A stretch of DNA of 64,000 bases. Origin: Escherichia phage vB_EcoM_H12. Position numbers and translations under genes: made by a program. Each line of letters opens with the position of its first letter. Position 1 is the first letter of the stretch. Under the pieces are notes generated by a model. The model was not told where the DNA came from and ran no database searches. It was given only the letters and a program-made list of their open reading frames with translations. Where the stretch lies: sequence record PP952733.1; one strand, written 5' to 3'. Below, piece by piece: positions 1,646 through 57,046 of the stretch.

Positions 1646-2998
1646 ATGTGGAATCCAATTGTTAATGTAGATATTACATTGAACACCGCAGGAACTACAA
1701 GAGAAGGTTTTGGGCTGCCACTATTTTTAGCTTCAACAGATAACTTTGAAGAAAGAGTCCGTGGTTACACTTCCTTAACTGAAGTTGCTGAAGATTTCGA
1801 TGAAAATTCTGCTGCATATAAGGCTGCTAAACAACTTTGGAGTCAGACTCCTAAAGTAACTCAGCTTTATATTGGTAGACGTGCTATGCAGTACACTGTA
1901 TCAATTCCTGATGAGGTTACTGAGAGCACCGACTATTCTTTAACTGTAGCTGTGAGCGGTGGAGTTTCTCAGCCATTCCAGTACACTTCACAGTCAGAAG
2001 ATACTGCTGAGAAGGTGCTACAGCAGCTTAAAACTCAGATTGAAGCAGAACCTTCTGTAAAAGACCTTGTTACTGTCAATGTAACTGGTGCTGGCGGTTC
2101 AGCAACAATGGTAATCACCAAAGCTGGTGTCAACGACTTCGTGAAGGTTACTACTACAGCACAAACAGTGTCAATTGCAAGCACAACTGCTGACACAGCA
2201 TCGACTGCTCTGGCAGCTATTGAAGCGTATTCAACTGACTGGTATTTCATTGCAGCAGAAGACAGAACTCAACAGTTTGTCTTAGCAATGGCTTCTGAGA
2301 TTCAAGCTCGTAAGAAGATTTTCTTTACAGCTAACTCCGATGTAGCAGCACTGCAAGGTACAGAATTAGCGAGTGCAAATGATGTTCCAGCACAGCTTGC
2401 TAAGAATCAGTACACTCGTACAGTTTGCTTGTGGCATCACACAGCAGCAGAAGACTATCCAGAAATGGCTTATATTGCTTATGGTGCTCCGTATGATGCA
2501 GGTTCAATTGCTTGGGGTAACGCACAGTTAACTGGTGTAGCTGCTTCTCTACAGCCATCTAATCAGAGACCTCTGACAAGTATTCAGAAGTCAGCTTTAG
2601 ATGCACGTCACTGTAACTTTATTGACCTTGATGGTGGTGTTCCAGTGGTTCGTAGAGGGATTACTTCTGGTGGGGAATGGATTGATATCATCCGTGGTGT
2701 TGACTGGTTAGAATCAGACCTGAAAACTTCTCTGAGAGACTTGCTAATTAACCAGAAGGGTGGTAAGATTACTTATGATGATACTGGTATTACCCGTATT
2801 CGTCAAGTCATTGAAACCTCTCTGCAAAGAGCAGTCAACAGAAACTTCCTGTCATCTTACACAGTTAATGTTCCTAAAGCCTCTCAAGTTGCTTTGGCAG
2901 ACAAGAAAGCTCGTATCCTGAAAGATGTTACCTTCGCAGGTATCTTGGCAGGGGCTATCTTGGATGTTGACTTGAAAGGTACAGTGGCTTACGAATAA
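1646..2998 (+). CDS. putative tail sheath protein
   Basis: 450 aa ORF followed by a 148 aa tube-sized ORF, a chaperone pair and the tape measure; synteny only. Confidence 0.5.
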   Translation: MWNPIVNVDITLNTAGTTREGFGLPLFLASTDNFEERVRGYTSLTEVAEDFDENSAAYKAAKQLWSQTPKVTQLYIGRRAMQYTVSIPDEVTESTDYSLTVAVSGGVSQPFQYTSQSEDTAEKVLQQLKTQIEAEPSVKDLVTVNVTGAGGSATMVITKAGVNDFVKVTTTAQTVSIASTTADTASTALAAIEAYSTDWYFIAAEDRTQQFVLAMASEIQARKKIFFTANSDVAALQGTELASANDVPAQLAKNQYTRTVCLWHHTAAEDYPEMAYIAYGAPYDAGSIAWGNAQLTGVAASLQPSNQRPLTSIQKSALDARHCNFIDLDGGVPVVRRGITSGGEWIDIIRGVDWLESDLKTSLRDLLINQKGGKITYDDTGITRIRQVIETSLQRAVNRNFLSSYTVNVPKASQVALADKKARILKDVTFAGILAGAILDVDLKGTVAYE

Positions 2999-3013
2999 TA
3001 GAGGTAAATTGGA

Positions 3014-3460
3014 ATGGCTATGTATCAGCAATATTCCCCTAAAGACGTTGTGTGTAGCTGGAATGGTATTGCCATTGAAGGCTTTGCCCCAGACTCATTC
3101 TTACGTCTACAGAGAACATCACCACTTGTGACACCAGTTGTAGGTGCAGGTGGTCAGGTTGCTCTGACAAGAAATGCAGACAAGACAGGTACTATTGAGA
3201 TTGAGCTAATGCAGACTTCTCTCTCTAATCAGATGCTTTCTGCAATTCAAGCTAAACAAGACAATATGGAACTTGAAGAAGATATCTCTTCTAACTTCGT
3301 AATCTACGACCCATCAGGCTCTGTTCTGGCAACTGGTATTAATGCTTGGTTGCAGGAATTACCACAGATTGAACTTGGTCGTGACCAGAACTCTAAAACT
3401 TGGATTTTTGGTTGTGAGAAGCTAGACTACACTTCTACAATTCCAGCGTCAAGTGTTTAA
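3014..3460 (+). CDS. putative tail tube protein
   Basis: 148 aa; between sheath-sized ORF and chaperones; followed by an intrinsic terminator. Confidence 0.5.
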   Translation: MAMYQQYSPKDVVCSWNGIAIEGFAPDSFLRLQRTSPLVTPVVGAGGQVALTRNADKTGTIEIELMQTSLSNQMLSAIQAKQDNMELEEDISSNFVIYDPSGSVLATGINAWLQELPQIELGRDQNSKTWIFGCEKLDYTSTIPASSV

Positions 3461-3472
3461 TAAATCCTATAA

Positions 3473-3504
3473 GGGGGAGACTTTAAAAGGTCTTCCCCTT
3501 TTTT
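3473..3504 (+). terminator. rho-independent terminator after tube gene
   Basis: GGGGGAGAC / GTCTTCCCC stem (one G-U pair), loop TTTAAAAG, then TTTTTT. Confidence 0.55.
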
Positions 3505-3533
3505 GTTTCTTTTAAAAGTATTAAGGAATCACA

Positions 3534-3932
3534 ATGAAAACAGAATCTAGAGTAATTAATGGTAAGAAAGTAAATATCGTTCTGCTTGGGGCAAGAGATG
3601 GTATTAAGATGTCTATGAAGTTGGGTAAAATTGTTGTTCCAACATTTGCACAGATGCTGTCAAGCCTGACTGATAAAGATAAGAAAGAAGCTCCAATGGT
3701 TCCATTTAAAGAACTTGTTGAAGCTTGTTTTGACAGAATTGAAGAAATTAACCTTGAAGAAATGGCTACCCTGTTATTTCAAGGGGCAACTGTTGATGAC
3801 TTCCCACTTAATATTGATACATACTTCCAAGCAAACTATGGTGAATTTATTGATTACTTAGTATTTGCGCTGGAGGCAAACTTCGGAAGTTTTTTCGAAG
3901 CAAGCATTTTCAAAAGCCTAACTTCTCAGTAA
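3534..3932 (+). CDS. tail assembly chaperone (short form)
   Basis: 132 aa acidic protein directly upstream of the tape measure; slippery TTTTTTC near its 3' end. Confidence 0.55.
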   Translation: MKTESRVINGKKVNIVLLGARDGIKMSMKLGKIVVPTFAQMLSSLTDKDKKEAPMVPFKELVEACFDRIEEINLEEMATLLFQGATVDDFPLNIDTYFQANYGEFIDYLVFALEANFGSFFEASIFKSLTSQ

Positions 3933-4173
3933 ACATGGGTAACACTCTACAGACACCACTGACTGATGCTGCTGTAGAGGCAACCTATGAAGAAGCAGAC
4001 GAGATGAAATTTGTGCTTGCTATTTATGGTATGGAAGGGTGTAAAGAAACACTTGACCAACTCTTTGCTATGACATTCTCTGATTTATTATCATTGAGAC
4101 AATTTCTTGAGATTCAGAGGTCGTATAAAGAGGAAATTGCTTACAACGAACTTAGAAGAGCAGGAAAAATGTA

Positions 4174-4174
<1 letters not shown>
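3854..4174 (+). CDS. -1 frame extension of the tail assembly chaperone (candidate frameshift product 3534-4174)
   Basis: Frame 2 is open from 3854 and overlaps the 3' end of 3534-3932; T_TTT_TTC at 3890-3896 is in the correct register; ends at the tape measure start. Confidence 0.4.
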
Positions 4175-9558
<5,384 letters not shown>

Positions 9559-9559
<1 letters not shown>

Positions 9560-11028
9560 TGGCAGGATTAACTACAACAGGATTACAAACTCTAAGATAT
9601 CAGGAGATTTTTGATAATATCAAATCAAGACTTCTTAGAGATATTTCACCCAATCTTGACGTTTCTGAAGATAGTCAATTAGGACTCTTCCTAGCTTCAA
9701 TTGCAAGGTCTTTAGCAGATACTCATGAGATTCTATCAGAAATCTACGATGGTGGGACAATTGATAAAGCTGAAGGTTTTAACCTTGACGACATTACAGC
9801 TTTGAACGCGGTGTATAGGTATGTTGCTCAGGCAACAAGAGGTCAGGTTGAGTTTACTGGAACAACTGGTGCTACCATTCCTTCAACAACAAGATTAAGA
9901 AGTACTGCCGGAAACATCTTTTATCCAGTTAATAACATTACCCTTACTCCATCATATTGTGTTGAAGCTATCCTTGAAGTTAACTCTTTACGAACTGATG
10001 CAGATTATGTTATTATTATTGATAACGTCATTTTCTCATATAAACCAACCTCATTAGACACAATCACCACGCTGCTAACAAAATTAGCAGAAGCTATTAA
10101 TGGTGGTATTGTAGCAAAAGCAGAAGTCATTAATGATGGAGCCGCACTAAGAGTCTATAAAGACGAGGGTGATATCATTGCAAGAACAAACCCTATGGTT
10201 GTCACTGCAACAACGTTTCTGACCTTTACAAAAATTACAACTATTTCAGATGTAGTAGCTGAAGAGGTTGGTGCTACCCCTGCTTTGGCTGGTACGCTTA
10301 TTGAGATTGAGACAACTGTTGATGGTCTTGACAGTATTTATAACAGGTATGATTTAACAACTGGTAGAAACGAAGAAACTGACACAGAACTTAGACAGAG
10401 ATATTTAGAATCTTTAGCAGTTACTGGTGTAGGGACTTTGGATGCAATTGTAGCTGCTGTTAAAAGAGTTCAAGGTGTCTCAGATGCTTCAGGTGTTGAA
10501 AATGATACTGAAGAGACAAGCTCAGAAGGTCTTCCACCAAAATCTTTTAAGATTGTTGTGGTTGGTGGTCAAAATGATAATGTTGCTCAAGCAATCTGGG
10601 ATACAAAACCTGCTGGTATTAGGGCTTATGGCTCAATTTTTGGTACAGCCCATGATTTAGGTGGTTTGGCACATAATATTTATTTTAGCAGACCAACACC
10701 AAAATACGCATTTGTTAAAGTCTCTTACTCTTTATATGATGAAGAAAGCTTGACAATCCCTGAAGAGGATATCAGAGACAGCATTGTACAAGGTATTAAT
10801 GCTTATGGAAGAACTCTTAAGGTTGGTAATGATGTTATCCCTAACAGAATCTATGGATATATCTATGACGTGATTAAAGGTATTGAGATTAATGAGGTTA
10901 AAGTAGCCTTATCAAACAGCCAATCAGTCCCACCTAGTGACGGGCAGTATACTACAGCAAGAATTACTGTTGACGGTGACCAATATACTGTTTGGGAAAG
11001 CAGCCAGTATACCATCACTAAGGAGTAA
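9559..11028 (+). CDS. baseplate J-like protein
   Basis: 489 aa; position and length typical of gpJ/gp6-family wedge subunits. Confidence 0.6.
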
Positions 11029-11030
11029 TA

Positions 11031-11885
11031 ATGTTTGAAAAGATTGATAGTGTTTATTACAAAACACTTGATGAAAGGACTGTAACACAGTTTAAAGATA
11101 AATTTATCTATACAAGTATCTTGAAAGCAATCACTGATGAATTACAAACTCTAGAGGATGTTTGCTGGCAGATGCACACAGAGAGAAATATCAGGACGTC
11201 AGTAGGCCAACAACTTGATAACATTGGCTCACTGATTAAAGTTCCTAGACCTTTAGGTGCAGATGATGAAACATATAGGGCTATGCTTTATATTCAAATC
11301 TTCCTAAGACGCTCTGACACCACCCCAACATTCTTGCAAAAAGCAATTATGACGCTATACGGTGCAACTTTCTCTCAGATTTTTGAGCATATTACTCCTA
11401 AGATTGGTGGTATCGTTATCCGTATCAACACTAGAAAAAGCGTTCTAGATGCTGCATATACACTATCAAAGATTTCTGCAACAACTACTGGCTCCGCTGT
11501 TATCTTAAGAGATGTTACTTTAAATGGGACTGCTTGGACACCTGTAGAGGTTGCTGATTCATCACTTGCTATTGTTGATGATAAAGAGAACTGGTTTGTA
11601 ACTGATGCTAACAGGGGTCTTGTCACAAATAACACTGGTGGCTCTCTGGAGTCCAACTTAGTAGGTAGTCTTGCAGATGCTGGTGTTATTGATGGTTACT
11701 TTAGGGTTGACAGAACAGCAAACTCACAGAGTGATGATTATATGACTGTAGATAGGTCCAATAATAGTGGCTATTTCATCGTTGGTAAAGAAGCTATTGC
11801 AGGTGGTGCATATGGAATCATGGCTGAGGTTGCACAAATTGTCAAAGGCAGAAAAGATAAATCACAACAAGAAGGAAATTCTTAA
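11031..11885 (+). CDS. putative baseplate / tail-fibre attachment protein
   Basis: Follows J-like gene as in P2 gpI / XkdU-type modules. Confidence 0.4.
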
Positions 11886-12187
11886 TGGCAGTTTTAAATT
11901 GGTCTACAAATGAAGTAGATACTGATGGTAACCAGTTAAAAGTTTTACCACCACCGGAAGTTCAAGAGACAGGTCTTTTAAAGGGTGAACCTATGGGTAG
12001 ACAGTGGTTCAACTATATTATCAACTACCTGCTTAATAAAGTAAACGGCACTGTTGGTGAAGTTCGCTCATATGCAACTCAGCAACCAGATTTAGTAGCC
12101 AATGGCTGGAAACTAATTAAGTCTGAGACAGGGACTGCAACAACAAGTACAAAGAACCTTTACACATATGAATATGTAGGAGCTTAA
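11885..12187 (+). CDS. hypothetical tail-fibre associated protein
   Basis: 100 aa, coupled to the downstream fibre gene. Confidence 0.35.
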
Positions 12188-12189
12188 TA

Positions 12190-13365
12190 ATGGCAGTCGG
12201 TGAAATTCAAATTAGTGCCTTGCCACAAGCGGCATTACCTGTTGATTTAAGTGATATCTTCCATCTTAAGCAAGGTGTTGAGGATAAAAGATGTACGCTT
12301 GAACAGTTGTTAGCACCTCACGCATCTTTGAGGAATAATCCTCATGGTGTAACCAAATCGCAAGTGGGTCTTGATAATGTTATTAACTCTCTTCAATTAG
12401 TTGCAGCTAATAACTTGTCAGACATTGTGAATGTTGCTGAGGCAAGAGCAAATCTACAAATTATGTCGTCAGAGGAAGTGAATAACTTAATTCAGCAACA
12501 TATTGACGACAAAAGTAACCCACACAATACAACGAAAGCACAGGTCGGTTTAAGTAATGTTCAGAACTGGACAACATCTAATCTGTACAACGAAGATGCT
12601 GATAAGTACGCCACCGCGAGAGCAGTGAATAATTTATACAAAGCTATTCAAGCATCATATCCAGTAGGGACTATTCATCTATCTGTTAACTCTGCCAACC
12701 CATCCACTTACTTGCTTTGTGGAGGTACTTGGGAGTTAGTTTCTAAAGGTAGAGCACTAGTTGGTTACGATACAGATTCTAGACCTGTTGGTTCAATGTT
12801 TGGTTCTCAGACTGTAGCATTAACGAATAATAATTTACCAGCACACACACACTCTATCTATCTAACAGGTGGTGGTCATACACACTCTGCAAGTGTATCT
12901 ATCTCTAGTTTTGATTATGGTTCAAAGAGTACATCAACTTTTGACTACGGTACAAAAACGACTAATAGTGCTGGTGCTCATACTCACACGTTTAGTGGTA
13001 CAACAAGTAATGCTGGTAACCACAACCACAGAGTACCTATGAGGGGTAATGATAGGGGTGGTACAAATGCTATTACTGCATCTGCTGATGCTGGTGTTGG
13101 TAATGCTATGTATACTGATTTAGCTGGTGCTCACACCCATAGCTTCTCAGGCACAACTGCATCATCTGGTGCTCATAGCCATACTCTTGCAATTGGTGCT
13201 CACAGCCACACTGTTAATATTGGTTCACACAGTCATACGGGCACTGTTACTGTTTCTAGCTCTGAGCATACACACTCAGGGACATCTGGTTCTGTTGGTG
13301 GTGGTCAAGCTTTCAGTGTTGAGCAACCATCTTTTGTAGTATATGTGTGGCAGAGAACAGCTTAA
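12190..13365 (+). CDS. tail fibre protein (short paralogue)
   Basis: Repeated NPH..T..QVGL motifs; C-terminal Ser/Thr/Gly-rich HTHS/GAHSHT repeats; C-terminus shared with the 849 aa fibre. Confidence 0.75.
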   Translation: MAVGEIQISALPQAALPVDLSDIFHLKQGVEDKRCTLEQLLAPHASLRNNPHGVTKSQVGLDNVINSLQLVAANNLSDIVNVAEARANLQIMSSEEVNNLIQQHIDDKSNPHNTTKAQVGLSNVQNWTTSNLYNEDADKYATARAVNNLYKAIQASYPVGTIHLSVNSANPSTYLLCGGTWELVSKGRALVGYDTDSRPVGSMFGSQTVALTNNNLPAHTHSIYLTGGGHTHSASVSISSFDYGSKSTSTFDYGTKTTNSAGAHTHTFSGTTSNAGNHNHRVPMRGNDRGGTNAITASADAGVGNAMYTDLAGAHTHSFSGTTASSGAHSHTLAIGAHSHTVNIGSHSHTGTVTVSSSEHTHSGTSGSVGGGQAFSVEQPSFVVYVWQRTA

Positions 13366-13376
13366 TTTCTTTACAG

Positions 13377-13398
13377 GGGCTTTGTAGCCCCTTTTAAG
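13377..13398 (+). terminator. hairpin GGGGCT-TTGT-AGCCCC with short T-run (terminator or attenuator)
   Basis: Perfect 6 bp GC-rich stem; follows fibre gene; T-tract only 4 nt. Confidence 0.35.
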
Positions 13399-13411
13399 AG
13401 GAAAATTTATA

Positions 13412-15961
13412 ATGGCAGATTACAAATTGAGTCAATTAAACTCAATCGACACAATTCGTTCAGAAGACCTATTGCACATCAGAGTTAAGAAAAGACCTGA
13501 AATGTTGGGTGACGAAGACCGTAGAATGACCTATCAAGACTTCTTAGCTTCCTTCAAACTAGAAAGGTTTGTTCAGATTGCTGGGAGTACTATGGTTGGG
13601 GATTTAGGTATTGTCAAGTTACTTTACGGTGGTAAGGCAGTATTTGACCCAACAGGCTCTTCTGAGATTACTATTGGGGATATTTTAAAGTCTTTTAAAA
13701 TTAACTCAAATGGGCTTAAACTCACTATTGCAGATGCCACAAGGTCGGCAACTGTTTATCATACTTTGAATAAACCAAGCCCTAATGAACTTGGTATGAG
13801 AACTAATGAAGAGAATGATGCAAGATATGCAAGGCTTGCTGTTACAAACACATTCTCTGGGACTCAGAACATTCAAGGTGATGCTAACTTACTTCGCCTT
13901 AGAAACCGAAATGCAAACAATGCACAATACATTGAAGGTGTAAACCCAGATGGTTCAGCTAGATGGTGGGTTGGTATTGGTAGCAATGGTTCTGACGAAG
14001 TAAAACTGTACAATAACAAATACAACTCAGTCTTGACTGTTGCAAGTAATATCTCTGTTAATAAGTCTTTAGCAATCACTGGACAAGTCCAACCTTCAGA
14101 TTTCTCTAACTTAGATGCTAGATACTTTACTCAGACAGTTGCTAATCAGAGATTTGCACAGTTAGCTGGTAATAACACTTTTACAGGTGCTAACACATTT
14201 AGGACTATGAGTGTTATTTCAAATGCTGCTGCTATCACACTGCAATGTGCATCAGCAAACGAATCCCTGTATCTACTTGCAAAAGATTATGAAGGTGGAA
14301 ACTTATGGTATCTCGGTAAAGGTAGTTCAGGTGCTGGTGTAACTATCTACAACTATACCACTAACACCTCTTTGGTCTTAGATGCTGCTGGAGTATCAGC
14401 AAATAAAAATGTCAGAATCACTGGACAAGTTCAACCTTCAGATTGGGCTAACATTGACTCTAGATATATTCCGGCAGCAACATTAAGTACAATTGCAAGA
14501 ACTAATGCAAGGAATACTTTTAATGGTGTACAGACAGTTGTTACGGATAATGAAGGTCTGATTGTTAAAAACTCTACTCAGAATAGACCATTATATATTC
14601 GTGGTGTGGACACTACTAATGTATCAAGATGGTGGATTGGTGTTGGTGGTGCTGATACGAATGATGTTACCCTAAATAACAGTTATTCTGGAACCCAATT
14701 GGTTCTCGGAAATACAACATCATACATTAACAAAACATTGACTATTGCTGGACAAGTTCAACCTTCAGATTTTTCTAACTTAGATGCTAGATACTTTACG
14801 CAAAGTGCTAGTGATAGCAGATACCTAAGAATCAGAAGCACTAGCTTCAATGTGGGAAACACTGATAAGTGGGCTAAAATTGCCACTGTTGTGATGCCAC
14901 AATCAGCATCAACTGCTGTTATTGAGGTATTTGGTGGGTCAGGTTTTAATATTAATACACCACAACAAGCAGGTAAATGTGAAATTGTTCTGCGAACTTC
15001 AAATAACAATCCAAAGGGCTTAAATGTTGTTGCTTGGAGAACATCAGACAACACCATTGTCAGGGATATTGGTTATGTGAATACTTCTGGAGACACCTAT
15101 GATATTTACTATCTTGCTGGTACGTATCAAAACAGCACAACGACAAGGGTTCAGTCTTCTAGTAATGCAAGTGTACAGTTGTTTGAAGTCCCACAGACAT
15201 TTGATGATGCTCCACAAGGTATTGTGAAGGGTACAATTGCAAAATACTACACAAGTTTGCAAAAACCAACCCCTTCAGAAATTGGTGCATACACTAAAGC
15301 AGAGACTGACCAGAAGATTGCAGAAGCAATTAGTGACTCTACAGACCTGAATAAAATCTATCCAGTAGGTATTGTGACGTGGTTTAATAGTAATGTTAAC
15401 CCTAATACAGCACTTCCTGGTCTAACTTGGACGTACCTGAATAATGGTGTTGGCAGAACTATTAGAATTGCAGCAGCAAATGGTTCAGATGTTGCTACAA
15501 CTGGTGGTTCAGACTCTGTAACGTTATCTGTTGGTAACTTGCCTTCACACACGCATAGTTTCTCTGCTACTACTTCATCATTTGATTATGGTACTAAGAC
15601 TTCTAGTACAACTGGTAACCATAACCATAACAGAGGGACTATGGAGATTACTGGTACAGTAGGTTACTTTAGAAGTGACTCTAGCAGCTTCTACACAGCA
15701 AGTGGTGCATTTACACTTGGTAGCTCAACTGCTTCTAAAGGCTTTACTGGTTCTCACTTCACTTATGGTATCCCTGCTAACTTCAATGCGTCAAGAACTT
15801 GGTCTGGTGTAACTAACACAACTGGTAACCACAGCCACACTGTTGGTATTGGTGCTCACAGCCACACAGTTAGTGGTAACACAGGTGGTACTGGTTCTGG
15901 TTCAGCATTTAGTGTTACTAACCAGTTCTACAAGTTAATGGCTTGGGTGAGAACTGCTTAA
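13412..15961 (+). CDS. tail fibre protein (long paralogue)
   Basis: 849 aa; three internal ITGQVQPSD(F/W)(S/A)N(L/I)D(A/S)RY repeats; C-terminal HxH repeats and ...AFSV...W.RTA end like the 12190 gene. Confidence 0.8.
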   Translation: MADYKLSQLNSIDTIRSEDLLHIRVKKRPEMLGDEDRRMTYQDFLASFKLERFVQIAGSTMVGDLGIVKLLYGGKAVFDPTGSSEITIGDILKSFKINSNGLKLTIADATRSATVYHTLNKPSPNELGMRTNEENDARYARLAVTNTFSGTQNIQGDANLLRLRNRNANNAQYIEGVNPDGSARWWVGIGSNGSDEVKLYNNKYNSVLTVASNISVNKSLAITGQVQPSDFSNLDARYFTQTVANQRFAQLAGNNTFTGANTFRTMSVISNAAAITLQCASANESLYLLAKDYEGGNLWYLGKGSSGAGVTIYNYTTNTSLVLDAAGVSANKNVRITGQVQPSDWANIDSRYIPAATLSTIARTNARNTFNGVQTVVTDNEGLIVKNSTQNRPLYIRGVDTTNVSRWWIGVGGADTNDVTLNNSYSGTQLVLGNTTSYINKTLTIAGQVQPSDFSNLDARYFTQSASDSRYLRIRSTSFNVGNTDKWAKIATVVMPQSASTAVIEVFGGSGFNINTPQQAGKCEIVLRTSNNNPKGLNVVAWRTSDNTIVRDIGYVNTSGDTYDIYYLAGTYQNSTTTRVQSSSNASVQLFEVPQTFDDAPQGIVKGTIAKYYTSLQKPTPSEIGAYTKAETDQKIAEAISDSTDLNKIYPVGIVTWFNSNVNPNTALPGLTWTYLNNGVGRTIRIAAANGSDVATTGGSDSVTLSVGNLPSHTHSFSATTSSFDYGTKTSSTTGNHNHNRGTMEITGTVGYFRSDSSSFYTASGAFTLGSSTASKGFTGSHFTYGIPANFNASRTWSGVTNTTGNHSHTVGIGAHSHTVSGNTGGTGSGSAFSVTNQFYKLMAWVRTA

Positions 15962-16040
15962 TCACTTGTTGACTGATTGTTAAGATGGTGTTAATATTCT
16001 TTATGGGTATTCTCACCATCTTGGCTGATGAGGTGATTAA

Positions 16041-20470: not shown

Positions 20471-20477
20471 ACCTTTT

Positions 20478-20506
20478 AAAAAGGAGCCTCCGAAGAGGCT
20501 ACCTAG
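20478..20506 (-). terminator. intrinsic terminator after 20512-20952
   Basis: Minus strand GCCTC-TTCG-GAGGC then TCCTTTTT. Confidence 0.55.
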
Positions 20507-20511
20507 TCAAC

Positions 20512-20952
20512 TTAGAAAGGTTTTCTACGTTGCTTATTAATGTTAGCTTTCATAGCAGCTAAATGGTTTTGCTGTTCAATCAGTCGTGAGCGTTCTTGAT
20601 GGCTAAGTGCCATAGTGTTCACATTCTCAATCGCTTGAGTGGCTTGCTTTAAAGCTCGACCAATCTTGCCAGACATTTTACGTTTTGCAATAGTTGCTTG
20701 ATGCTTAGGTTCAACCACACGATAACCAACACCCATTGAAGCAACCAGATAAATCTTCTCTTCTTTAAGAAGCTTCTCAATAAACTTCTCAAGTCGGTTT
20801 AGACGTGTAAGCGCATAAGCCTTCATTTCATCTTCGTACTTAACAATGTCACCTTGATAAGTTGGCTTCACAATACCTAAGAATGTGTCCATCTCAGAAT
20901 GTGATACAGTGTCACCGTAACTAAACTTTGCTGCTAATGCTTTTGTATTCAT
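20512..20952 (-). CDS. hypothetical protein
   Basis: 146 aa; coupled to 20955-21557; terminator downstream. Confidence 0.45.
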   Translation of the reverse strand: MNTKALAAKFSYGDTVSHSEMDTFLGIVKPTYQGDIVKYEDEMKAYALTRLNRLEKFIEKLLKEEKIYLVASMGVGYRVVEPKHQATIAKRKMSGKIGRALKQATQAIENVNTMALSHQERSRLIEQQNHLAAMKANINKQRRKPF

Positions 20953-20954
20953 AA

Positions 20955-21560
<606 letters not shown>

Positions 21561-21620
21561 TTAGTTGATTGTTAAGTTGTTTGTAAAGAACCCTCAACAG
21601 AAGACTCTTTAGAAACTTGG

Positions 21621-21749
21621 TAGATTTTTAACGTGGCTACTACCATCCACCCAGACTTTACCATACCTCACCAGACCATACCTCACCTGGCCGCGCCTTG
21701 CCTTGCCAAACATCACTTAAAAACCCTTTTAAAAGACTCTTAAGTGATG
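21621..21749 (-). repeat. structured intergenic element copy C
   Basis: Identical CATCACTTAA ... TTAAGTGATG hairpin (21711-21749), GT-rich tract, GGATGGTAGTAGCC box, same orientation as copy A. Confidence 0.6.
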
Positions 21750-24476: not shown

Positions 24477-24537
24477 AATCGCTCCTATATAAGATATTGT
24501 ATAAGGTACTCTTCCATGAGCACCTTGTCAATACTAA

Positions 24538-28792: not shown

Positions 28793-29536
28793 ATGAGTAA
28801 TATTATTGCATTTACTGGAAAGGCACGTTCTGGAAAAGACACCTCATGTTCTATTGTTAAGAATATCTTAGAAGATGAGTATGGCTACAATGTTGCAGTA
28901 ATGGCATATGCAGACAACCTTAAGCTATCTGCATCAAAGATATTTGACCTGACTTGGAATGACCTATACGGTGAAACTAAAGAGACTCCACAGGTTTTTG
29001 ATTTATCATACTCTGAACTAATGTTCAAAGTTACAGAAGCTATGGAGTTCACCTTCAGAGATGAACGTTACCATATGGACTTTAAGCTTATGTCGGAGTT
29101 AACCGGACGATTAATCATGGAACTTAAGAAGGTCGCTAAACCGACTCTATTGACACGTCTGGGGTTTAGTAAAAAGTATAAATTCTCATCAAGGCAAATT
29201 CAACAGATTTGGGGCACTGAAGTTATCCGTAAAGTTATGGGTGACAAATTCTGGGCTAAAGACCTCGAAACACGGATGGTTCGCTTCTTTGAATCTTGTT
29301 CACTAAGGAATCAAGAGGGTGTTGTTTTAATCAGTGACTTAAGGTTTGACTCTGAAGCTGAGTGGCTGAGTAGATTTGCACACCAAACTATTGAAGTAAA
29401 AAGAGACAATGTGGATAAGGTTTCATCACATGTTTCAGAAAATGGGATTTCTACCAAATATGCGCGTGACATTATCCATAATAATGGTACTCTTGAAGAC
29501 CTTGAAAGCAAGCTAAGAGCTATCCTGAAAATTTAA
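28793..29536 (+). CDS. putative deoxynucleoside monophosphate kinase
   Basis: N-terminal P-loop FTGKARSGKDT; size and context match phage dNMP kinases. Confidence 0.55.
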   Translation: MSNIIAFTGKARSGKDTSCSIVKNILEDEYGYNVAVMAYADNLKLSASKIFDLTWNDLYGETKETPQVFDLSYSELMFKVTEAMEFTFRDERYHMDFKLMSELTGRLIMELKKVAKPTLLTRLGFSKKYKFSSRQIQQIWGTEVIRKVMGDKFWAKDLETRMVRFFESCSLRNQEGVVLISDLRFDSEAEWLSRFAHQTIEVKRDNVDKVSSHVSENGISTKYARDIIHNNGTLEDLESKLRAILKI

Positions 29537-44569: not shown

Positions 44570-44582
44570 GCAGATACTATAA

Positions 44583-44607
44583 GGGAACTGTAAAGGTTCC
44601 CTTTTTA
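44583..44607 (+). terminator. intrinsic terminator
   Basis: GGGAAC-TGTAAAG-GTTCCC then TTTTT. Confidence 0.6.
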
Positions 44608-44620
44608 TTTTGGAGATAAT

Positions 44621-45136
44621 ATGTATCTGTCAAATCTGAAACGTTCTGCTGCAATGTCAGTGTTAAGACTCAGTTTTGAGGAACGTCAAGAGTTCATTGA
44701 CTCCCACCAATACGACCCTTCCAACTCCAATCACATGATTCTCTGGAATCGTGAGAGTACTCGTGAAAGAGCATTATTTCAATATTATCCACACTACACC
44801 ATAGACAACCTGTATGAATGTTTTGTTGTGAAGAACACCATTACAGTACTCAATAAACTTTGCAGATACACAGGCAGTCAATCCTTCACATTAGGCCACC
44901 ACAAACCTGTTACAAAAGGTGGTGAACATCACTGTGCAAACTGGTTTATTCAGACTAAAGCTGATAACCAGAAGCAAGGAGATAGCCTTTTAAGTACCAC
45001 TAAGATGACCTATGAAGAGCAAGAGAGATATATCAAAAATAATATGCCAGATGTGCTTGACAACAACTATACAGATTTGGCAATATCTCTCCTGTTGAAG
45101 TTCGAGATAGTTTATAGGGCAACTTACAATGGCTAA
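44621..45136 (+). CDS. HNH endonuclease, putative homing endonuclease
   Basis: GHHKPVTKGGEHHCANWFIQTKADNQKQG matches the HNH (His-Asn-His) nuclease signature. Confidence 0.55.
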   Translation: MYLSNLKRSAAMSVLRLSFEERQEFIDSHQYDPSNSNHMILWNRESTRERALFQYYPHYTIDNLYECFVVKNTITVLNKLCRYTGSQSFTLGHHKPVTKGGEHHCANWFIQTKADNQKQGDSLLSTTKMTYEEQERYIKNNMPDVLDNNYTDLAISLLLKFEIVYRATYNG

Positions 45137-45407
45137 AGAAAAGTGGGAGATTTTACCATTAGTGAGTGAAGGTGGTAATGGTTGTGAGATGTACATGATA
45201 CGTGGTCATGTTCCAGAACCAATTGCACTTGAGATGGTAAACAATTTTACAGATGGTTCTTACAAAGACTTGGGAGAGCCAACTGTCAAGCATCAATGGG
45301 TCAAACCTGTACCAGACAGCACAGGTAACTGTAGTGTACTTTATCACGTTGTAGACCCTGTAAAATGCAAATCTGCAATGGCAGTAACAAACGTAACTTT
45401 TGATTGA
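45129..45407 (+). CDS. hypothetical protein
   Basis: 92 aa ORF coupled to flanking genes. Confidence 0.3.
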   Translation: MAKEKWEILPLVSEGGNGCEMYMIRGHVPEPIALEMVNNFTDGSYKDLGEPTVKHQWVKPVPDSTGNCSVLYHVVDPVKCKSAMAVTNVTFD

Positions 45408-46302
45408 GAGAGAGAAAACTATGAAAACAACTATCCGAGTTCTGCTTAATGCTAATACTAAAGGTAGCATTCAAGAAGTCTTTAACATTATCCAATTCCC
45501 GTCTGGTGAGATTGGTGGCAACTTCTCCGAAGACTTTGTTGGATTTGCTGAAAAATTTGCTGGACAGATTGATAATGCTTTCTTCGCAGTGCAAGGCTAT
45601 GACAAAGATACGCTATTTGCATTAGCTCTGGCTAAAGAGGCAGTTGATAAATTGGTTCCTCAAGGTTCAGCTACGAAGACAGTTGTTTTTGGATTCTTAC
45701 CAAACGCACGTTATGACCGTCACATGTTTAAAGGTGATGCAGCAGCCCTTAAGGTATTTGCTAATTTGGTAAATGCAATGGAGTTTGATGCAGTATGTGC
45801 TTTGGACACTCACAGTAACGTTGCAGAAAACCTTTTCAAGTGCTTCCACAACTTACCTCAGAAAGAGTTTGCAGCACACTTTGCAAGTGACCCTCGCATT
45901 GATTACTTGGTAGCTCCAGATGCAGGTGCAGCTAAGAAGACTGAAGAGACTGCTAAAGAGGTTGACAAGCCTTACATTACAATGGCAAAAGTTCGCAACC
46001 TGAAAACTGGTGAAATCACTGGTATGCGACTTCTCGATGATGTAGACTTAACTGGTAAAACCGTCATGATTCTTGATGATATTTGTGATGGTGGTCGAAC
46101 ATTCGTAGAGGCTGCAAAGTGTCTTCGTGAAGCTGGAGCAGAACGTGTGGAACTGTATGTGACACATGGTATTTTCTCTAAAGGTGTCCAGAACCTTCTT
46201 TACAATGGTATTGACCATGTTTATACTACAAACTCTTTAGGAAATGCTGAAGACCGTGGGTTATCACATTTCAACAAAGTAACTGTAGCAAACCTTGATT
46301 AA
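45400..46302 (+). CDS. prs: ribose-phosphate pyrophosphokinase family protein (Prs-like; candidate ADP-ribose pyrophosphokinase)
   Basis: Matches Prs along its length as recalled (LVAPDAGA ~ VVSPDIGG; MILDDICDGGRTF...YVTHGIFS ~ VLVDDMIDTGGTL...YATHPIFS). Confidence 0.85.
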   Translation: MIEREKTMKTTIRVLLNANTKGSIQEVFNIIQFPSGEIGGNFSEDFVGFAEKFAGQIDNAFFAVQGYDKDTLFALALAKEAVDKLVPQGSATKTVVFGFLPNARYDRHMFKGDAAALKVFANLVNAMEFDAVCALDTHSNVAENLFKCFHNLPQKEFAAHFASDPRIDYLVAPDAGAAKKTEETAKEVDKPYITMAKVRNLKTGEITGMRLLDDVDLTGKTVMILDDICDGGRTFVEAAKCLREAGAERVELYVTHGIFSKGVQNLLYNGIDHVYTTNSLGNAEDRGLSHFNKVTVANLD

Positions 46303-46312
46303 AACTTTATAG

Positions 46313-46334
46313 GGGCTTTTAAGCCCCATTTTGA
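46313..46334 (+). terminator. hairpin between Prs-like and Nampt-like genes (attenuator candidate)
   Basis: GGGGCTT-TTA-AGCCCC then ATTTTG; weak U-tract. Confidence 0.3.
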
Positions 46335-46347
46335 GAGAGATTAAAAG

Positions 46348-48129
46348 ATGACTAAATCACTTTATGCAGTACCAGCAGGTTTAAACGCAGATGCTTACAA
46401 ATCTGGTCACATTTACCAGTATCCTAGTGCAACAGAATACTTGATGTTCAACCTAACACCACGTAGTGACAAATGGTTTAACAGCCCTTTAGCAATTGAC
46501 GGTGTAGTGGCTTTTGGTATTCAACGTTTTGTTAAAGATTACCTGATAGACCACTGGAACGCCACCTTCTTTGAACGTGACAAAAAAGAAGCAATTGATG
46601 AAATCTTAGAAGTCATGAACGGTGTTCTGGGTAAAGATGCTATTGGTCGAGAGCATTGGGAAGCACTCCATGACTTAGGTTATCTACCAGTTGAAGTATA
46701 CGCTGTAGAAGAAGGCACAGTTGTCCCTATGCGTGTACCAATTATTGTCTTCCAGAACACTGTTTCAGGTTTCCATTGGGTAGCGGGGTATCTTGAAGAT
46801 GCTTTCTCTGCTGAGATTTGGAAGGCTTGTACCATTGCAACTATTGCATTGCACTACAAACGTATCTGTAAGAAGTGGGCTGACCTTACTTGTGACAACG
46901 ACTTGCATTTACCTTATCAGTGCCATGACTTTGCTATGCGTGGTATGTCTGGCTTTACTGATGACGCATTTAACGCTGTAGGTCACTTAACCAGCTTTAA
47001 AGGAACTGACAGCTTCCCTGCTGTGTATACAGCTAAACGCATCTATGGACAGTCCTACCCAATCTCTGATATTGGTAGTTCTGTACCAGCCACTGAACAC
47101 TCTGTAATGTGTGCAAACATTGCTTGGGAAGGTGGTAATGAGTTGATTGAAGAAGAAAGACGCTTTAAAGGTGAGTTACAAACCTTCCGTCGTTTCTTAA
47201 CAGAAACTTACCCAACTGGCATTGCAAGTGTTGTTTCAGATACTTATAACTTCTGGAGAACTGTATCAGTTATATTACCAGAACTTCGTAAAGAGATTAT
47301 GGAACGTGATGGCAAACTGGTAATTCGTCCTGACTCTGGAGACCCTGTACATATTGTCACAGGCTATAAAGCAATCCACTTAGAGTGTGCTAAAAAGGCT
47401 TATTACGAACACCTAAGCAAGCTGGAAGCCAGCGACACAATGTTGAATGCTGTTCTGAACATGAAGCTTGAAAACATCAATTATGGTATTGCTGGATGGC
47501 TATTGTCAGAAGGCTACGAAATGGTTGTTGACAGAGAAGACTTTGAAGTTGCTGATACAGTGCTGTTGAAAAATGCTTATATGGTTGGTTCTGCAAACGT
47601 TGTAACACGTCCTGTAGCGGAGATTGATGGAGCTATCAAGACACTGTATAACATCTTTGGAGGAACTATCAACTCTAAAGGTTTTAAAGTACTGGATGAG
47701 CATATCGGACTTATTTATGGTGACTCTATCACGTTGGAACGTGCAAACGAAATACTGAAGCGTTTGTATGAAATGGGTTTTGCAAGCTCTAACGTAGTGT
47801 TTGGTGTAGGTTCTTATACTTACCAGTACATGACTCGTGATACCTTTGCATTTGCTGTCAAAGCAACTCTTGCAAGCATTGGTGGTAAAGAGATTATGCT
47901 TGCAAAAGACCCTAAAACAGATAGCGGTGTTAAGAAGTCTGCTTTTGGTGGTGTAGCACCTATGTGGGATGGTGATAATCTGAAAGCTGTAGATGGCTAT
48001 GGATTCCAGAGCTTTGCAGATGTGCTAGAGCATCCAGCTTGTGCTTTACGTTTAGTCTTTAGCGACTCTGAGCAGTTCGGTTACACAACTCTTGGTGATA
48101 TTCGAAATAATATTGACAAGCAGCTTTAA
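46348..48129 (+). CDS. nadV: nicotinamide phosphoribosyltransferase family protein (Nampt-like; candidate Namat)
   Basis: Matches Nampt along its length as recalled (DAYKSGH, HDFAMRG, FKGTDS, SVPATEHS, IRPDSGDP). Confidence 0.9.
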   Translation: MTKSLYAVPAGLNADAYKSGHIYQYPSATEYLMFNLTPRSDKWFNSPLAIDGVVAFGIQRFVKDYLIDHWNATFFERDKKEAIDEILEVMNGVLGKDAIGREHWEALHDLGYLPVEVYAVEEGTVVPMRVPIIVFQNTVSGFHWVAGYLEDAFSAEIWKACTIATIALHYKRICKKWADLTCDNDLHLPYQCHDFAMRGMSGFTDDAFNAVGHLTSFKGTDSFPAVYTAKRIYGQSYPISDIGSSVPATEHSVMCANIAWEGGNELIEEERRFKGELQTFRRFLTETYPTGIASVVSDTYNFWRTVSVILPELRKEIMERDGKLVIRPDSGDPVHIVTGYKAIHLECAKKAYYEHLSKLEASDTMLNAVLNMKLENINYGIAGWLLSEGYEMVVDREDFEVADTVLLKNAYMVGSANVVTRPVAEIDGAIKTLYNIFGGTINSKGFKVLDEHIGLIYGDSITLERANEILKRLYEMGFASSNVVFGVGSYTYQYMTRDTFAFAVKATLASIGGKEIMLAKDPKTDSGVKKSAFGGVAPMWDGDNLKAVDGYGFQSFADVLEHPACALRLVFSDSEQFGYTTLGDIRNNIDKQL

Positions 48130-48144
48130 AAGTATATGATAAGA

Positions 48145-48166
48145 GGCTCCTACGGGAGCCTTTTTA
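48145..48166 (+). terminator. intrinsic terminator
   Basis: GGCTCC-TACG-GGAGCC then TTTTT. Confidence 0.65.
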
Positions 48167-48182
48167 ATTTCTGGAGAATGCT

Positions 48183-48527
48183 ATGGACAACCTTTCCATA
48201 TGGTTTAACAAGAAACCTGTACAACCGAAATACTTACAAGTTGCCTATACAGACATCCTTGAAGTTCTCGGTAAAGAAAAGTTTGAAAAGTTTTGTGAAG
48301 GTATCTACAATCACCACTGCCAATTTGCTACAAAAGAAGGTATGTTTGTCATAGAACAGTTCTTTGGCAGAGACCCAGATGATTATGAAGAGATTAGTTT
48401 TGTAATGAAATACATGATAGAGTATATTGAAAATCGTGGATTCGAAGTTAATCCTGAATTTTATGAGCATGAGGGTGTACCTTTAGCAAAAGGTTTTGAT
48501 GGTATACTCGTTAACTGGACTTGGTGA
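48183..48527 (+). CDS. hypothetical protein
   Basis: 114 aa ORF. Confidence 0.35.
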   Translation: MDNLSIWFNKKPVQPKYLQVAYTDILEVLGKEKFEKFCEGIYNHHCQFATKEGMFVIEQFFGRDPDDYEEISFVMKYMIEYIENRGFEVNPEFYEHEGVPLAKGFDGILVNWTW

Positions 48528-48868
48528 AAATTATGAAAATCAAAGAAATGAACATCAACATTGTCTTAGAAGAACGCTGGGAGAACATCAAGAAGCCTGA
48601 AAATGGTCATAAGTTCCTCAACAAAATCTTAGTAGCAGCTAAAGAAGAACTGACTGGCAAGGTTGCAGCAGCAATCACAATAAAGGTGTGTGTAAAAGGT
48701 CTTCCAGACAATCACCAATTTGCACTTGACGAGTTTAAAGAGAGCTTCTACAATCCAAACAAACAGATGCTTGAAAGTAACTTTGCAGTGTCTACAAGTA
48801 TCGTCCATGACAGAAGCTTTATCCTTTACAAGAATATGAGAGGTGAGTCATGCAAGCATATTGGATAG
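48521..48868 (+). CDS. hypothetical protein
   Basis: 115 aa ORF. Confidence 0.35.
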   Translation: MVKIMKIKEMNINIVLEERWENIKKPENGHKFLNKILVAAKEELTGKVAAAITIKVCVKGLPDNHQFALDEFKESFYNPNKQMLESNFAVSTSIVHDRSFILYKNMRGESCKHIG

Positions 48869-49026
48869 AAATTTTACTGTCACTTGGTAGTGTAGCAGTA
48901 TTTGTTTACCTTCTTTGCAAGTACTATGCAGAGCACAAAAAATGTGACTTCTGTGACGGAGAAGGCTATACAAGAGCAGGTTGTTGCCCTATGTGTGGTG
49001 GTTCTGGTAAAATGTTTAATAAGTAA
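48850..49026 (+). CDS. small membrane-anchored zinc-ribbon protein (58 aa; below track cutoff)
   Basis: ATG at 48850; N-terminal TM helix then CDFCDG ... CCPMCGG. Confidence 0.3.
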   Translation: MQAYWIEILLSLGSVAVFVYLLCKYYAEHKKCDFCDGEGYTRAGCCPMCGGSGKMFNK

Positions 49027-49054
49027 TTTAACAGTAAACTAAGAGGAAAGTATT

Positions 49055-56260: not shown

Positions 56261-57046
56261 ATGGGTATTGTAAAAATCATCAATGGGGATATCTTCTCAG
56301 CATTTGATAAAGGTAAGTTTGATGTTATTGGTCACGGTTGCAACTGTATGAATTTAATGGGTGCAGGTATCGCTGACAAGATTTCTAAACTTTATCCAAA
56401 AGCATATGAGACCGATACAGAAGTTTATCTGTATGCAGGTGGAATAGGCCACAAACCTTGTGAAAATTTACTAGGGAATTTCTCTGTAGCACGTTTAGAA
56501 CAAGGCCGTATAGCTAACCTTTACACTCAGCTTAAGACTGGTAAAGATGCCCGATACAGTGCTTTAGAGTCATCTTTGAAACAACTTAACAGATACTGTG
56601 AAGTCAATCAGTTGAAGAAAGTTGGGTTACCTATGATTGGTGCAGGTATCGGTGGACTAGACCCTCAAGCCGTCGCAGTTATCATTAATCAGGTGATGAA
56701 GAGTGTAGATGTGTATCTGTATGTCTACGAAGGCGAGATGTACCACAAGTTACGCTCAGGTTGGAAGAACTACTGTGAACCAGAATACTTTGCAGGTGTA
56801 GTAATGTTCACAGATGATACAGTTACCCTCTTCAGACGAAGAAAAGGTAAGATACATCAAAGTAACCCTCCGGTTGAGAAGATGTCTCTAAGTAACGCTC
56901 TAGTTACCCACCTGTCGAAGAGCAATCACAGAATTGCAGTAACATTTGGCAGTGATGCAGACGCTTACATCTATGCAAGAACTGATGAGGATATTGATAC
57001 AGTTTTCTCTTCACCGGAAGTAACCTTCTTAGACGCAAAGAACTAA
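56261..57046 (+). CDS. macro-domain protein (ADP-ribose binding / processing)
   Basis: N-terminal GDI ... DVIGHGCNCMNLMGAGIADKI and later VGLPMIGAGIGGLDPQAV align with macro-domain motifs (compare E. coli YmdB, as recalled). Confidence 0.7.
   Translation: MGIVKIINGDIFSAFDKGKFDVIGHGCNCMNLMGAGIADKISKLYPKAYETDTEVYLYAGGIGHKPCENLLGNFSVARLEQGRIANLYTQLKTGKDARYSALESSLKQLNRYCEVNQLKKVGLPMIGAGIGGLDPQAVAVIINQVMKSVDVYLYVYEGEMYHKLRSGWKNYCEPEYFAGVVMFTDDTVTLFRRRKGKIHQSNPPVEKMSLSNALVTHLSKSNHRIAVTFGSDADAYIYARTDEDIDTVFSSPEVTFLDAKN

Follow-up and report, generated by a model that had tools for sequence, protein, structure and literature searches.

The Prs-like and Nampt-like genes that lie side by side in the 64,000-nt stretch of Escherichia phage vB_EcoM_H12 analysed here (PP952733.1, hereafter the window) very probably form the NARP1 operon of a Felixounavirus, with the first gene encoding a predicted ADP-ribose pyrophosphokinase (Adps) and the second a predicted nicotinamide ADP-ribose transferase (Namat). 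The window is Felixounavirus DNA sharing ~92% nucleotide identity with Escherichia phage JohannRWettstein (Bas63) and collinear with Bas63 positions 7307-70971; the positional orthologues of the two genes in Bas63 are genes 79 and 80 (bas63_0079/0080, MZ501086), the operon in which NARP1 was discovered (10.1101/2024.02.11.579819). The two products are 81% (over all 293 aa) and 98% identical to Bas63_0079 and Bas63_0080, respectively. Both pairs also agree in protein length (293 and 593 aa), in the 45 nt that separate the genes and in their neighbours on either side. The system is therefore already described, and the window pair corresponds to the founding NARP1 example in a close relative of Bas63; ~258 related genomes carry the pair. 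An earlier note on this DNA had proposed a NARP1-type Adps/Namat pair with the Prs-like gene followed by the Nampt-like gene on one strand, 45 nt apart. Both ORFs are indeed on the + strand, and the proposal is supported by the Bas63 orthology, the clamp motif of Namat, a fold match and the absence of an Nmnat domain from the ORFs scanned.

Host defences such as SIR2-HerA, Thoeris type I, DSR1/2, SEFIR and Kongming split NAD+ into ADP-ribose (ADPR) and nicotinamide. In the proposed mechanism, Adps (45421-46302) would pyrophosphorylate ADP-ribose at its 1'' position, with ATP as the donor, to give ADPR-pyrophosphate (ADPR-PP), and Namat (46348-48129) would condense ADPR-pyrophosphate with nicotinamide to yield NAD+ directly, by Nampt-type chemistry combined with an adenine-binding clamp. 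Because the two enzymes would rebuild NAD+, phage replication could continue despite NAD+ depletion. Bas63 lacking genes 79-80 plates ~20-fold more poorly on SIR2-HerA, wild-type Bas63 partly restores NAD+, its anti-SIR2-HerA effect persists in a host without pncC and nadR, and ADPR-PP appears in infected cells only when the Bas63 operon and the defence system are both present (10.1101/2024.02.11.579819). The in vitro conversions of ADPR and ATP to ADPR-PP, and of ADPR-PP and nicotinamide to NAD+, come from the SPbetaL1 enzymes only (10.1101/2024.02.11.579819); these homologues are 32% (Adps) and 48% (Namat) identical to the window proteins. By analogy, we infer that the window allele pair has the same enzymatic activities and would counter NAD+-depleting defence as its Bas63 orthologue does with SIR2-HerA. 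The analysis of the window itself supports this through the orthology, the conserved residues for catalysis and specificity, the fold, the signature of purifying selection and the layout of the operon.

Gene adps (45421..46302, + strand) encodes a predicted Prs-like ADP-ribose pyrophosphokinase of 293 aa with matches to PF14572, PF00156, TIGR01251 and phrog_619 (the last at 1e-95). The ORF listing opens this frame at TTG 45400, which gives the 300 aa of the earlier note; the family assignment holds, and the length needs correction, the start being most likely ATG 45421. This codon is preceded by the ribosome-binding stretch GAGAGAGAGAAAAC, which resembles that ahead of the second gene. The TTG was ruled out, since a 2-nt deletion between TTG and ATG in Bas63 puts it out of frame and the annotated orthologues in Bas63, AYO145A and D4 (882 nt, 293 aa) use the ATG. 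The catalytic lysine is kept, with K190 (MAKVRNLKTGE) aligning with K162 of SPbetaL1 Adps (GHKQRNFHTGE), the equivalent of B. subtilis Prs K197 and a residue whose mutation has been described (10.1101/2024.02.11.579819). Identity is 32% to SPbetaL1 Adps versus 26% to E. coli Prs; the protein passes the broad subfamily model TIGR01251 (130.8 bits, cut-off 113) and fails both the equivalog Prs model NF002095 (106 bits, cut-off 296) and the subfamily Prs model NF002320 (97.7 bits, cut-off 297). Bas63 Adps was one of the queries defining the phage Adps clade (10.1101/2024.02.11.579819). Within that clade 97% of members have a Namat homologue within 10 genes, and here namat begins 45 nt past the adps stop codon on the + strand. 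Identity and profile scores, used in place of a formal tree, thus point to membership of the phage Adps clade rather than of cellular Prs. Since a PDB sequence search found no solved Adps structure and we know of no published specificity signature for Adps, the ADPR specificity predicted for the enzyme derives solely from orthology.

Gene namat (46348..48129, + strand) encodes a predicted Nampt-like nicotinamide ADP-ribose transferase whose 593 aa agree with the length first reported. It matches PF04095, NAMPT_N (PF18127), NF006629 and phrog_448, as well as the SPbetaL1 Namat chains 9w5w/9w5x (E = 1e-127). Specific to Namat is the adenine-clamp motif GSXΦXΦXΦTRD, in which X is aromatic; the motif contacts the adenine and is absent from Nampt (PMC12774641). 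The window protein features this selectivity-clamp helix (SCH) as GSYTYQYMTRD at residues 488-498, while KVP40 Nampt has GGGLLQQLDRD at that position. Its selectivity-clamp loop (SCL), defined by Arg/Lys/Tyr at the third position plus a stacking residue, reads TPRSDKW with K42 and W43 and is identical to that of Bas63; in the published AlphaFold3 model of Bas63 Namat, the fourth SCL residue sits on the adenine. The Nampt-like catalytic core (F195, R198, D221, H251, R327 and D329), judged against F189, R192, D215, the catalytic His, R306 and D308 of SPbetaL1 Namat, is invariant in the alignment. The protein is 48% identical to SPbetaL1 Namat versus 32% to KVP40 Nampt (NadV), and a Foldseek search with its AF2 model (pLDDT 92) ranked the Namat crystal structures first (TM 0.95), ahead of NadV and NAMPT. 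Two of its segments are extra relative to SPbetaL1 Namat, a short one at 259-273 (~15 aa) and a longer one at 344-426 (~80 aa). The longer segment is modelled as a confident small alpha/beta subdomain; Pfam gave no match for residues 340-427, and a whole-model fold search cannot isolate this insert, as Nampt matches dominate. The clamp motif allows the second protein to be called from its sequence as a probable Namat rather than a Nampt. The earlier view that sequence cannot separate Adps/Namat from canonical Prs/Nampt is accordingly superseded, the distinction being made by the Bas63 orthology, the clamp motif, the fold match and the lack of an NMN adenylyltransferase domain in the scanned ORFs.

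The 45-nt adps-namat spacer (46303-46347) contains a stem-loop, GGGGCT-TTTA-AGCCCC followed by ATTTTG, at 46312..46327 on the + strand; a hairpin between the genes had been recognised at 46313-46334, which overlaps this element without giving its exact limits. It folds with a centroid energy of -11.5 kcal/mol (z = -2.5), which 4 of 200 shuffled sequences match, and the stem is kept, with a variable loop, in 23 of 29 related loci. The one variant stem (loci L026/L030) shows no clean compensatory change, and covariation is not claimed. The AYO145A depositors annotated the same hairpin as a rho-independent terminator. As a standard intrinsic terminator it was rejected here, failing the terminator scan because only four T follow the stem, and it is possibly a weak terminator, an attenuator or an RNA-stability element. 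Upstream, the terminator scan revealed a terminator-like hairpin with a T-run (44581..44603, + strand), the probable 5' boundary of the transcription unit with two small ORFs (44621-45136, phrog_3500, and 45129-45407, phrog_4726, both at the same position in Bas63), adps and namat. Downstream, a terminator-like hairpin with a 10-bp stem and a T-run (48141..48164, + strand) lies 12 nt past the namat stop codon. Directly ahead of it is a promoter-like site, TTGACA-16-TATGAT (48113-48140, 11/12 match), and the AYO145A annotation has a promoter at the equivalent place.

An extension of this scheme concerns a macro-domain protein of 261 aa (56261..57046, + strand; Pfam Macro 5.8e-8; phrog_335), a candidate accessory encoded 8.1 kb and ~17 ORFs downstream of the operon and orthologous to Bas63_0095. 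It is homologous to Adpp, the ADPR-1''-phosphate phosphatase associated with NARP1. If the genes of an extended pathway (NARP1-AP) were dispersed, this protein might dephosphorylate ADPR-1''-phosphate, the product of aRES defence, and so feed Adps and Namat. We regard this as rather unlikely, though it has points in its favour. The protein falls in phrog_335 together with the operon-embedded Thalassavirus Adpp, aligns with Cody Adpp over the whole Adpp length (29% identity, E = 8e-15) and shares conserved motifs with published Adpps, including H-x-x-N and G-x-G-(I/V)-A; the best fold matches of its model are TARG1, Poa1p (an ADPR-1''-P phosphatase) and DarG. Moreover, the published survey, which names no Escherichia or Salmonella phage, arrived at its estimate of 15% phosphatase-bearing NARP1 phages by inspecting no more than two genes on each flank of the operon. 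On the other hand, phrog_335 also includes the T4-type Tk.4, and T4, to our knowledge, lacks NARP1. A specific affinity to operon-embedded Adpps was sought and not seen: the protein is no closer to these (27-34%) than to T4 Tk.4 (35%), and Adpps and Tk.4 proteins are interleaved in a neighbour-joining tree. Its top fold match, TARG1, is a de-ADP-ribosylase, and it carries an additional C-terminal domain of ~100 aa that has no Pfam match and that a whole-model fold search cannot isolate, as macro matches dominate. No Macro match occurs in the six ORFs upstream and four downstream of the operon, macro domains are found in ~41% of myoviruses (PMC9503650), and the accessible part of the published aRES phage list includes no Felixounavirus.

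Canonical NAD+ salvage, in which ribose 5-phosphate is converted to PRPP, PRPP and nicotinamide to NMN, and NAD+ is completed by host NadR/PncC, is very unlikely to be the main role of the pair. Both proteins match Prs and Nampt/NAPRTase family models, almost all GenBank relatives are annotated as Prs/Nampt, and SPbetaL1 Namat has in vitro about half of the NMN-forming activity of human Nampt from PRPP (PMC12774641). However, Bas63 overcame SIR2-HerA in the host lacking pncC and nadR, and the Prs-like enzyme of SPbetaL1, once purified, yielded nothing measurable in a canonical Prs assay while turning ADPR and ATP into ADPR-PP (10.1101/2024.02.11.579819). The window proteins themselves argue likewise, the second by an adenine clamp that Nampt lacks and the first by scores of 98-106 bits in specific Prs models with cut-offs of ~296-297. 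Some canonical salvage activity may still accompany the NARP1 function, by analogy with the NMN made from PRPP in vitro by SPbetaL1 Namat. The NARP2 route fits less well, since the scanned ORFs yielded no Nmnat domain and the Nampt-like protein is not of the KVP40 type and adjoins adps. The absence of an NMNAT from the window, as first noted, was borne out among the ORFs scanned: no CTP_transf_like/Nmnat domain (E <= 1e-3) was detected in 58 ORFs of at least 70 aa (16235-63689) or in the operon neighbours, the large replication and Nrd genes, and the tail genes at 1-16000, being assigned by collinearity with annotated Bas63 and ~23 kb of the genome lying outside the window. No gene for an NMN adenylyltransferase, RyR/RyDEP or Macro protein was found beside the operon.

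Nucleotide identity to Bas63 is 65-85% within adps and 91-99% in the flanks; the window adps is 19% divergent from its Bas63 counterpart, its closest allele in the phage collection is at most 89% identical, and its nearest alleles are those of Mooglevirus phages. The dN/dS ratio is ~0.11-0.16 for adps and 0.02-0.04 for namat, with dS raised in adps (~1.0-1.2, against 0.15-0.25 in namat). Positive selection was ruled out as the source of the adps variability, as the raised dS together with the low dN/dS indicates an old, exchanged allele. The window adps is a Mooglevirus-like, recombinant allele that evolves under purifying selection. Some of the relatives have an HNH homing endonuclease within the adps-namat spacer; no simple link between the adps allele type and this endonuclease was found, the latter accompanying several allele types. 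A reading of the two genes as degenerating or functionless cargo, which the unusual divergence of the adps allele could suggest, has a negligible probability given the intact frames, the retained catalytic residues, the strong purifying selection with a dS suggestive of an old allele instead, and the presence of the pair in so many related genomes.

As an orthologue of the founding example, the window pair by itself adds no new biology. NARP1 enables phages to survive an entire class of bacterial immune systems that deplete NAD+, and its correct recognition is useful for host-range prediction and for the choice of therapeutic phages; databases still mostly label its genes "Prs" and "Nampt", two enzymes of which the latter can now be told from Namat through the clamp motif. 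The adps gene is exchanged as a cassette among Ounavirinae genera, beside a homing-endonuclease insertion site. The unlinked Adpp homologue raises the question of whether the pathway with its phosphatase extension is commoner than the published survey indicates; if Felixounavirus phages did possess an aRES-proof NARP1 with dispersed genes, the 15% figure would understate its frequency.

Among known systems, the window operon most resembles the NARP1 of Bas63, with which it shares the genus, the genome position, the spacer with the same hairpin stem, a nearly identical Namat including the clamp residues, and an Adps with all conserved blocks kept, although its adps allele comes from a different lineage. 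With the NARP1 of Bacillus phage SPbetaL1 it has in common the adps-namat gene order, the catalytic Lys of Adps, the catalytic core of Namat, the SCH motif (GSFTYQYNTRD in SPbetaL1) and a TM-score of 0.95 on the crystal chain; in SPbetaL1, however, the genes abut without spacer or hairpin, and the SCL stacking residue is R40 instead of K42/W43. NARP1-AP (Adps-Adpp-Namat, in Vibrio phage Gary and related Thalassavirus, Pakpunavirus and Otagovirus phages) uses the same Adps and Namat families, and the window has, in addition, a gene for a macro-domain homologue of Adpp from phrog_335, but this gene is neither in nor next to the operon and its product has the extra C-terminal domain. NARP2 (NadV plus the NMN adenylyltransferase/Nudix protein NatV, in Vibrio phage KVP40) likewise employs a Nampt-fold enzyme for phage NAD+ restoration, whereas the window has a Prs-like partner and no Nmnat domain among the ORFs scanned. 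Cellular Prs (E. coli b1207) resembles the window Adps in fold, catalytic chemistry and the RxDR, DxH and DD...G.T blocks; it differs in that the N-terminal half of the window Adps is unrecognised by Pfam and the ribose 5-phosphate-binding loop reads DGGRT in the window protein versus DTGGT. Finally, Nampt/NadV (human NAMPT, Haemophilus ducreyi NadV) shares fold, chemistry and the catalytic His and Arg with the window Nampt-like protein, which is set apart by its adenine clamp.

Two genes on the plus strand carry the NARP1 pathway, in which Adps converts ADP-ribose (ADPR) and ATP to ADPR-PP and Namat joins ADPR-PP to nicotinamide to give NAD+: adps (45421-46302), coding for a Prs-like protein, and, 45 nt downstream, namat (46348-48129), coding for a Nampt-like protein of 593 aa just as the earlier note described it. 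By its matches in Pfam, PHROGs and NCBIfam, the product of adps belongs to the Prs family (PF14572, PF00156, TIGR01251 and phrog_619 at 1e-95) and that of namat to the Nampt/NAPRTase family (PF04095, PF18127, NF006629 and phrog_448 at 2e-201). The plus-strand Prs-like ORF had been given as 300 aa, and the ORF listing does open it at TTG 45400, but its start is almost certainly ATG 45421 (293 aa), because a GAGAG-rich ribosome-binding stretch resembling that before namat precedes this codon and the orthologues whose annotation was checked are 882 nt long. TTG 45400 was dropped as the start on account of these lengths and of a 2-nt deletion that puts it out of frame in the orthologue of Bas63 (Escherichia phage JohannRWettstein, MZ501086). 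Both genes are functional, as purifying selection acts on each (dN/dS 0.11-0.16 in adps, 0.02-0.04 in namat).

Two terminator-like hairpins with T-runs, one upstream of the operon (44581-44603) and one at 48141-48164, enclose two small conserved ORFs followed by adps, the hairpin-bearing spacer and namat. The first ORF is 171 aa long (phrog_3500; 44621-45136, plus strand) and weakly matches an HNH-like family (phrog_2214, 9.8e-5; HHKPVTKGGEHHCANW); the second, of 92 aa, is phrog_4726 (45129-45407, plus strand). Both apparently share a transcription unit with adps. A near-consensus promoter-like site is found at 48113-48140. The spacer stem-loop noticed earlier exists, at 46312-46327 rather than 46313-46334; it reads GGGGCT-TTTA-AGCCCC and has a centroid energy of -11.5 kcal/mol (z = -2.5 against shuffles). 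Of 29 related loci, 23 retain it, the loop varying freely. It is annotated as a terminator in phage AYO145A, but just four T follow its stem. We infer that it acts as a weak terminator, an attenuator or an RNA-stability element.

A 261-aa macro-domain protein is encoded 8.1 kb downstream of the operon (56261-57046, plus strand), and its counterpart in Bas63 is Bas63_0095, annotated "putative phosphatase". Adpp, the macro-domain phosphatase that extends NARP1 to NARP1-AP, converts ADPR-1''-phosphate, a product of the aRES defence, to ADP-ribose and so enables NARP1 (10.64898/2026.01.28.702374). The window might hold a dispersed form of NARP1-AP, in which the unlinked protein would be an Adpp feeding Adps and Namat. 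The protein falls in phrog_335 ('phosphatase') together with the operon-embedded Adpp of Thalassavirus phages, aligns with the Cody Adpp along the latter's entire length (29% identity, E = 8e-15) and shares the family motifs of the published Adpps, and its modelled fold matches the macro domains of TARG1, Poa1p and DarG. However, about 41% of myoviruses encode macro domains (PMC9503650), phrog_335 also holds the T4-type Tk.4, and the protein is no nearer to the Adpps than to Tk.4; for these reasons we regard a dispersed NARP1-AP as rather unlikely. The Adpp survey covered two genes on either side of NARP1, a range beyond which this gene lies, and the study lists no Escherichia or Salmonella phage; in the accessible part of its phage list we found no Felixounavirus (10.64898/2026.01.28.702374). 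The protein also carries a beta-rich extra C-terminal domain (about residues 170-261) with no Pfam match, which recurs in the Erwinia Kolesnikvirus homologue.

NARP2, which pairs Nampt with an NMN adenylyltransferase, is not supported, because no Nmnat domain was found in the ORFs scanned: NMN adenylyltransferase, RyR-type and Macro domains are all missing beside the operon, and 58 further ORFs of the window contain no Nmnat domain, in agreement with the earlier note, which saw no HxGH-type NMNAT in the window.

The elements distinguishing Namat from Nampt were set out in a 2026 structural study of Namat from the Bacillus phage SPbetaL1, namely a helix motif GSXΦXΦXΦTRD, in which aromatic residues at X pack against the ADPR-PP adenine by stacking, and a variable loop that gives an additional stacking residue (PMC12774641). 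The window Namat has GSYTYQYMTRD at 488-498 and TPRSDKW (K42, W43) in the loop, both identical to Bas63, whereas the NARP2 Nampt of the Vibrio phage KVP40 has GGGLLQQLDRD at the helix-motif position. All catalytic residues common to Nampt are kept (F195, R198, D221, H251, R327 and D329). Comparison with the Namat crystal chains 9w5w/9w5x gives E = 1e-127, versus about 1e-40 with human NAMPT, and the AlphaFold2 model (pLDDT 92, pTM 0.90) best matches the Namat crystals (TM 0.95 on target), followed by Haemophilus NadV and human NAMPT.

To our knowledge no signature has been published for Adps, and no solved Adps structure was found. The window protein is 32% identical to SPbetaL1 Adps versus 26% to E. 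coli Prs, and its scores fall far short of the cut-offs of the more specific curated Prs models. In the 5-phosphate loop, which binds ribose-5-phosphate in Prs, it has DGGRT in place of DTGGT, a change that would fit an altered substrate. Its K190 aligns with SPbetaL1 K162, the catalytic lysine that the discovery paper mutated (10.1101/2024.02.11.579819). The Namat clamp motif contradicts canonical Prs/Nampt salvage, as does the host-knockout experiment published for the Bas63 orthologue.

SPbetaL1 Namat lacks two segments of the window Namat, one of about 15 residues (259-273; window 47120-47166) and one of about 80 (344-426; window 47377-47625). Both insertions characterise the Namat of Ounavirinae and recur in that of several further Gram-negative myoviruses. 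The model shows the larger one with confidence (pLDDT 92-96) as a small alpha/beta subdomain; Pfam gives no match to it, and the Namat structure paper (NAR) is silent on it (PMC12774641). In Klebsiella, Cronobacter, Kosakonia, Phytobacter and Erwinia, chromosomally encoded proteins of about 496 aa (P0069, P0072, P0073, P0082, P0099 and P0110 in our comparison) share 45-48% identity with the window Namat; like SPbetaL1 Namat they lack both insertions, and their motif reads GSFTYQYNTRD or GSYTYQYNTRD. This suggests that Enterobacteriaceae may hold bacterial NARP1-like genes.

Against Felixounavirus genomes, the flanks and namat show 91-99% nucleotide identity, which drops to 65-85% precisely over adps. 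The most similar alleles are those of the Mooglevirus phages Mijalis and phiSUSP1 (83-93% nucleotide and 85-89% amino acid identity), and no sequence in the phage collection is above 89% at the amino acid level. The dS of adps is about five-fold above that of namat while dN/dS stays low, which points to an exchange of alleles rather than adaptive divergence. Judged by its sequence against the Mooglevirus-like loci L008 and L009 and locus L045 of phage vB_EcoM_D4, adps is a recombinant cassette (window 45421-46350). The spacer is a homing-endonuclease site: a free-standing gene for a 163-aa HNH_3 homing endonuclease with a weak AP2 match replaces the hairpin there in D4, in I14.1 and in 6 of the 29 relatives (L008:4391-4882, the same site in L011 and L018-L021, and, for D4, L045:2509-3000, corresponding to window 46303-46347). 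The window spacer itself lacks the gene. The window and D4 are 100% identical over about 46950-49050, whereas adps, the spacer and roughly the initial 130 nt of namat reach only 58-87%. Endonuclease-driven co-conversion could plausibly shuffle adps alleles; endonuclease presence does not track with a single allele type.

Elsewhere, mobile-element differences between the window and Bas63 were seen at 20472-21659, 24531-24537 and 41644. The first is about 1.2 kb extra in the window and contains ORFs 20512-20952 and 20955-21557; a SegE-type GIY-YIG domain turned up within the ORF batch to which these two belonged. The Bas63 homing endonuclease gene 0046 and the intron with endonuclease (0068) splitting its NrdD are absent from the window. 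The tail-fibre region (13167-15961, plus strand) is the most divergent from Bas63 (about 70-76% identity or unalignable), which would be expected of a region that determines host range. A Pfam DNMK match in an ORF batch was assigned by collinearity with Bas63_0050 to 28793-29536 (plus strand), which would encode a deoxynucleotide monophosphate kinase. Kongming, an NAD+-depleting defence that NARP1 of SPbetaL1 was shown to counter, is reportedly triggered by such a phage kinase (PMC12774641), so one genome may hold both trigger and remedy.

We found no literature description of the adps cassette, the spacer endonuclease site, the Namat inserts or the unlinked Adpp homologue; these observations, including the exchange of adps next to the endonuclease site, are modest leads and not findings. 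The region matches about 258 records, nearly all from Felixounavirus and related Ounavirinae (hosts Escherichia, Salmonella, Shigella and Citrobacter). Downstream of the operon the nearest relative is D4 (97% over 11.6 kb), and the entire window is collinear with Bas63 7307-70971 at about 92% identity. Genes 79 and 80 of Bas63 form the operon in which NARP1 was discovered; without them Bas63 plates about 20-fold worse on SIR2-HerA cells, wild-type phage partly restores NAD+, the effect is independent of host PncC and NadR, and ADPR-pyrophosphate appears only when operon and defence system are both present (10.1101/2024.02.11.579819). Bas63_0079/0080 share with the window pair their lengths (293 and 593 aa), 45-nt spacer, hairpin stem and neighbours, with ungapped protein identities of 81% (Adps) and 98% (Namat). 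The NARP1-type reading of the earlier note therefore holds: the pair is the same-genus orthologue of the founding operon of an already known system, and there is no reason to expect its mechanism to differ from that of Bas63 NARP1.
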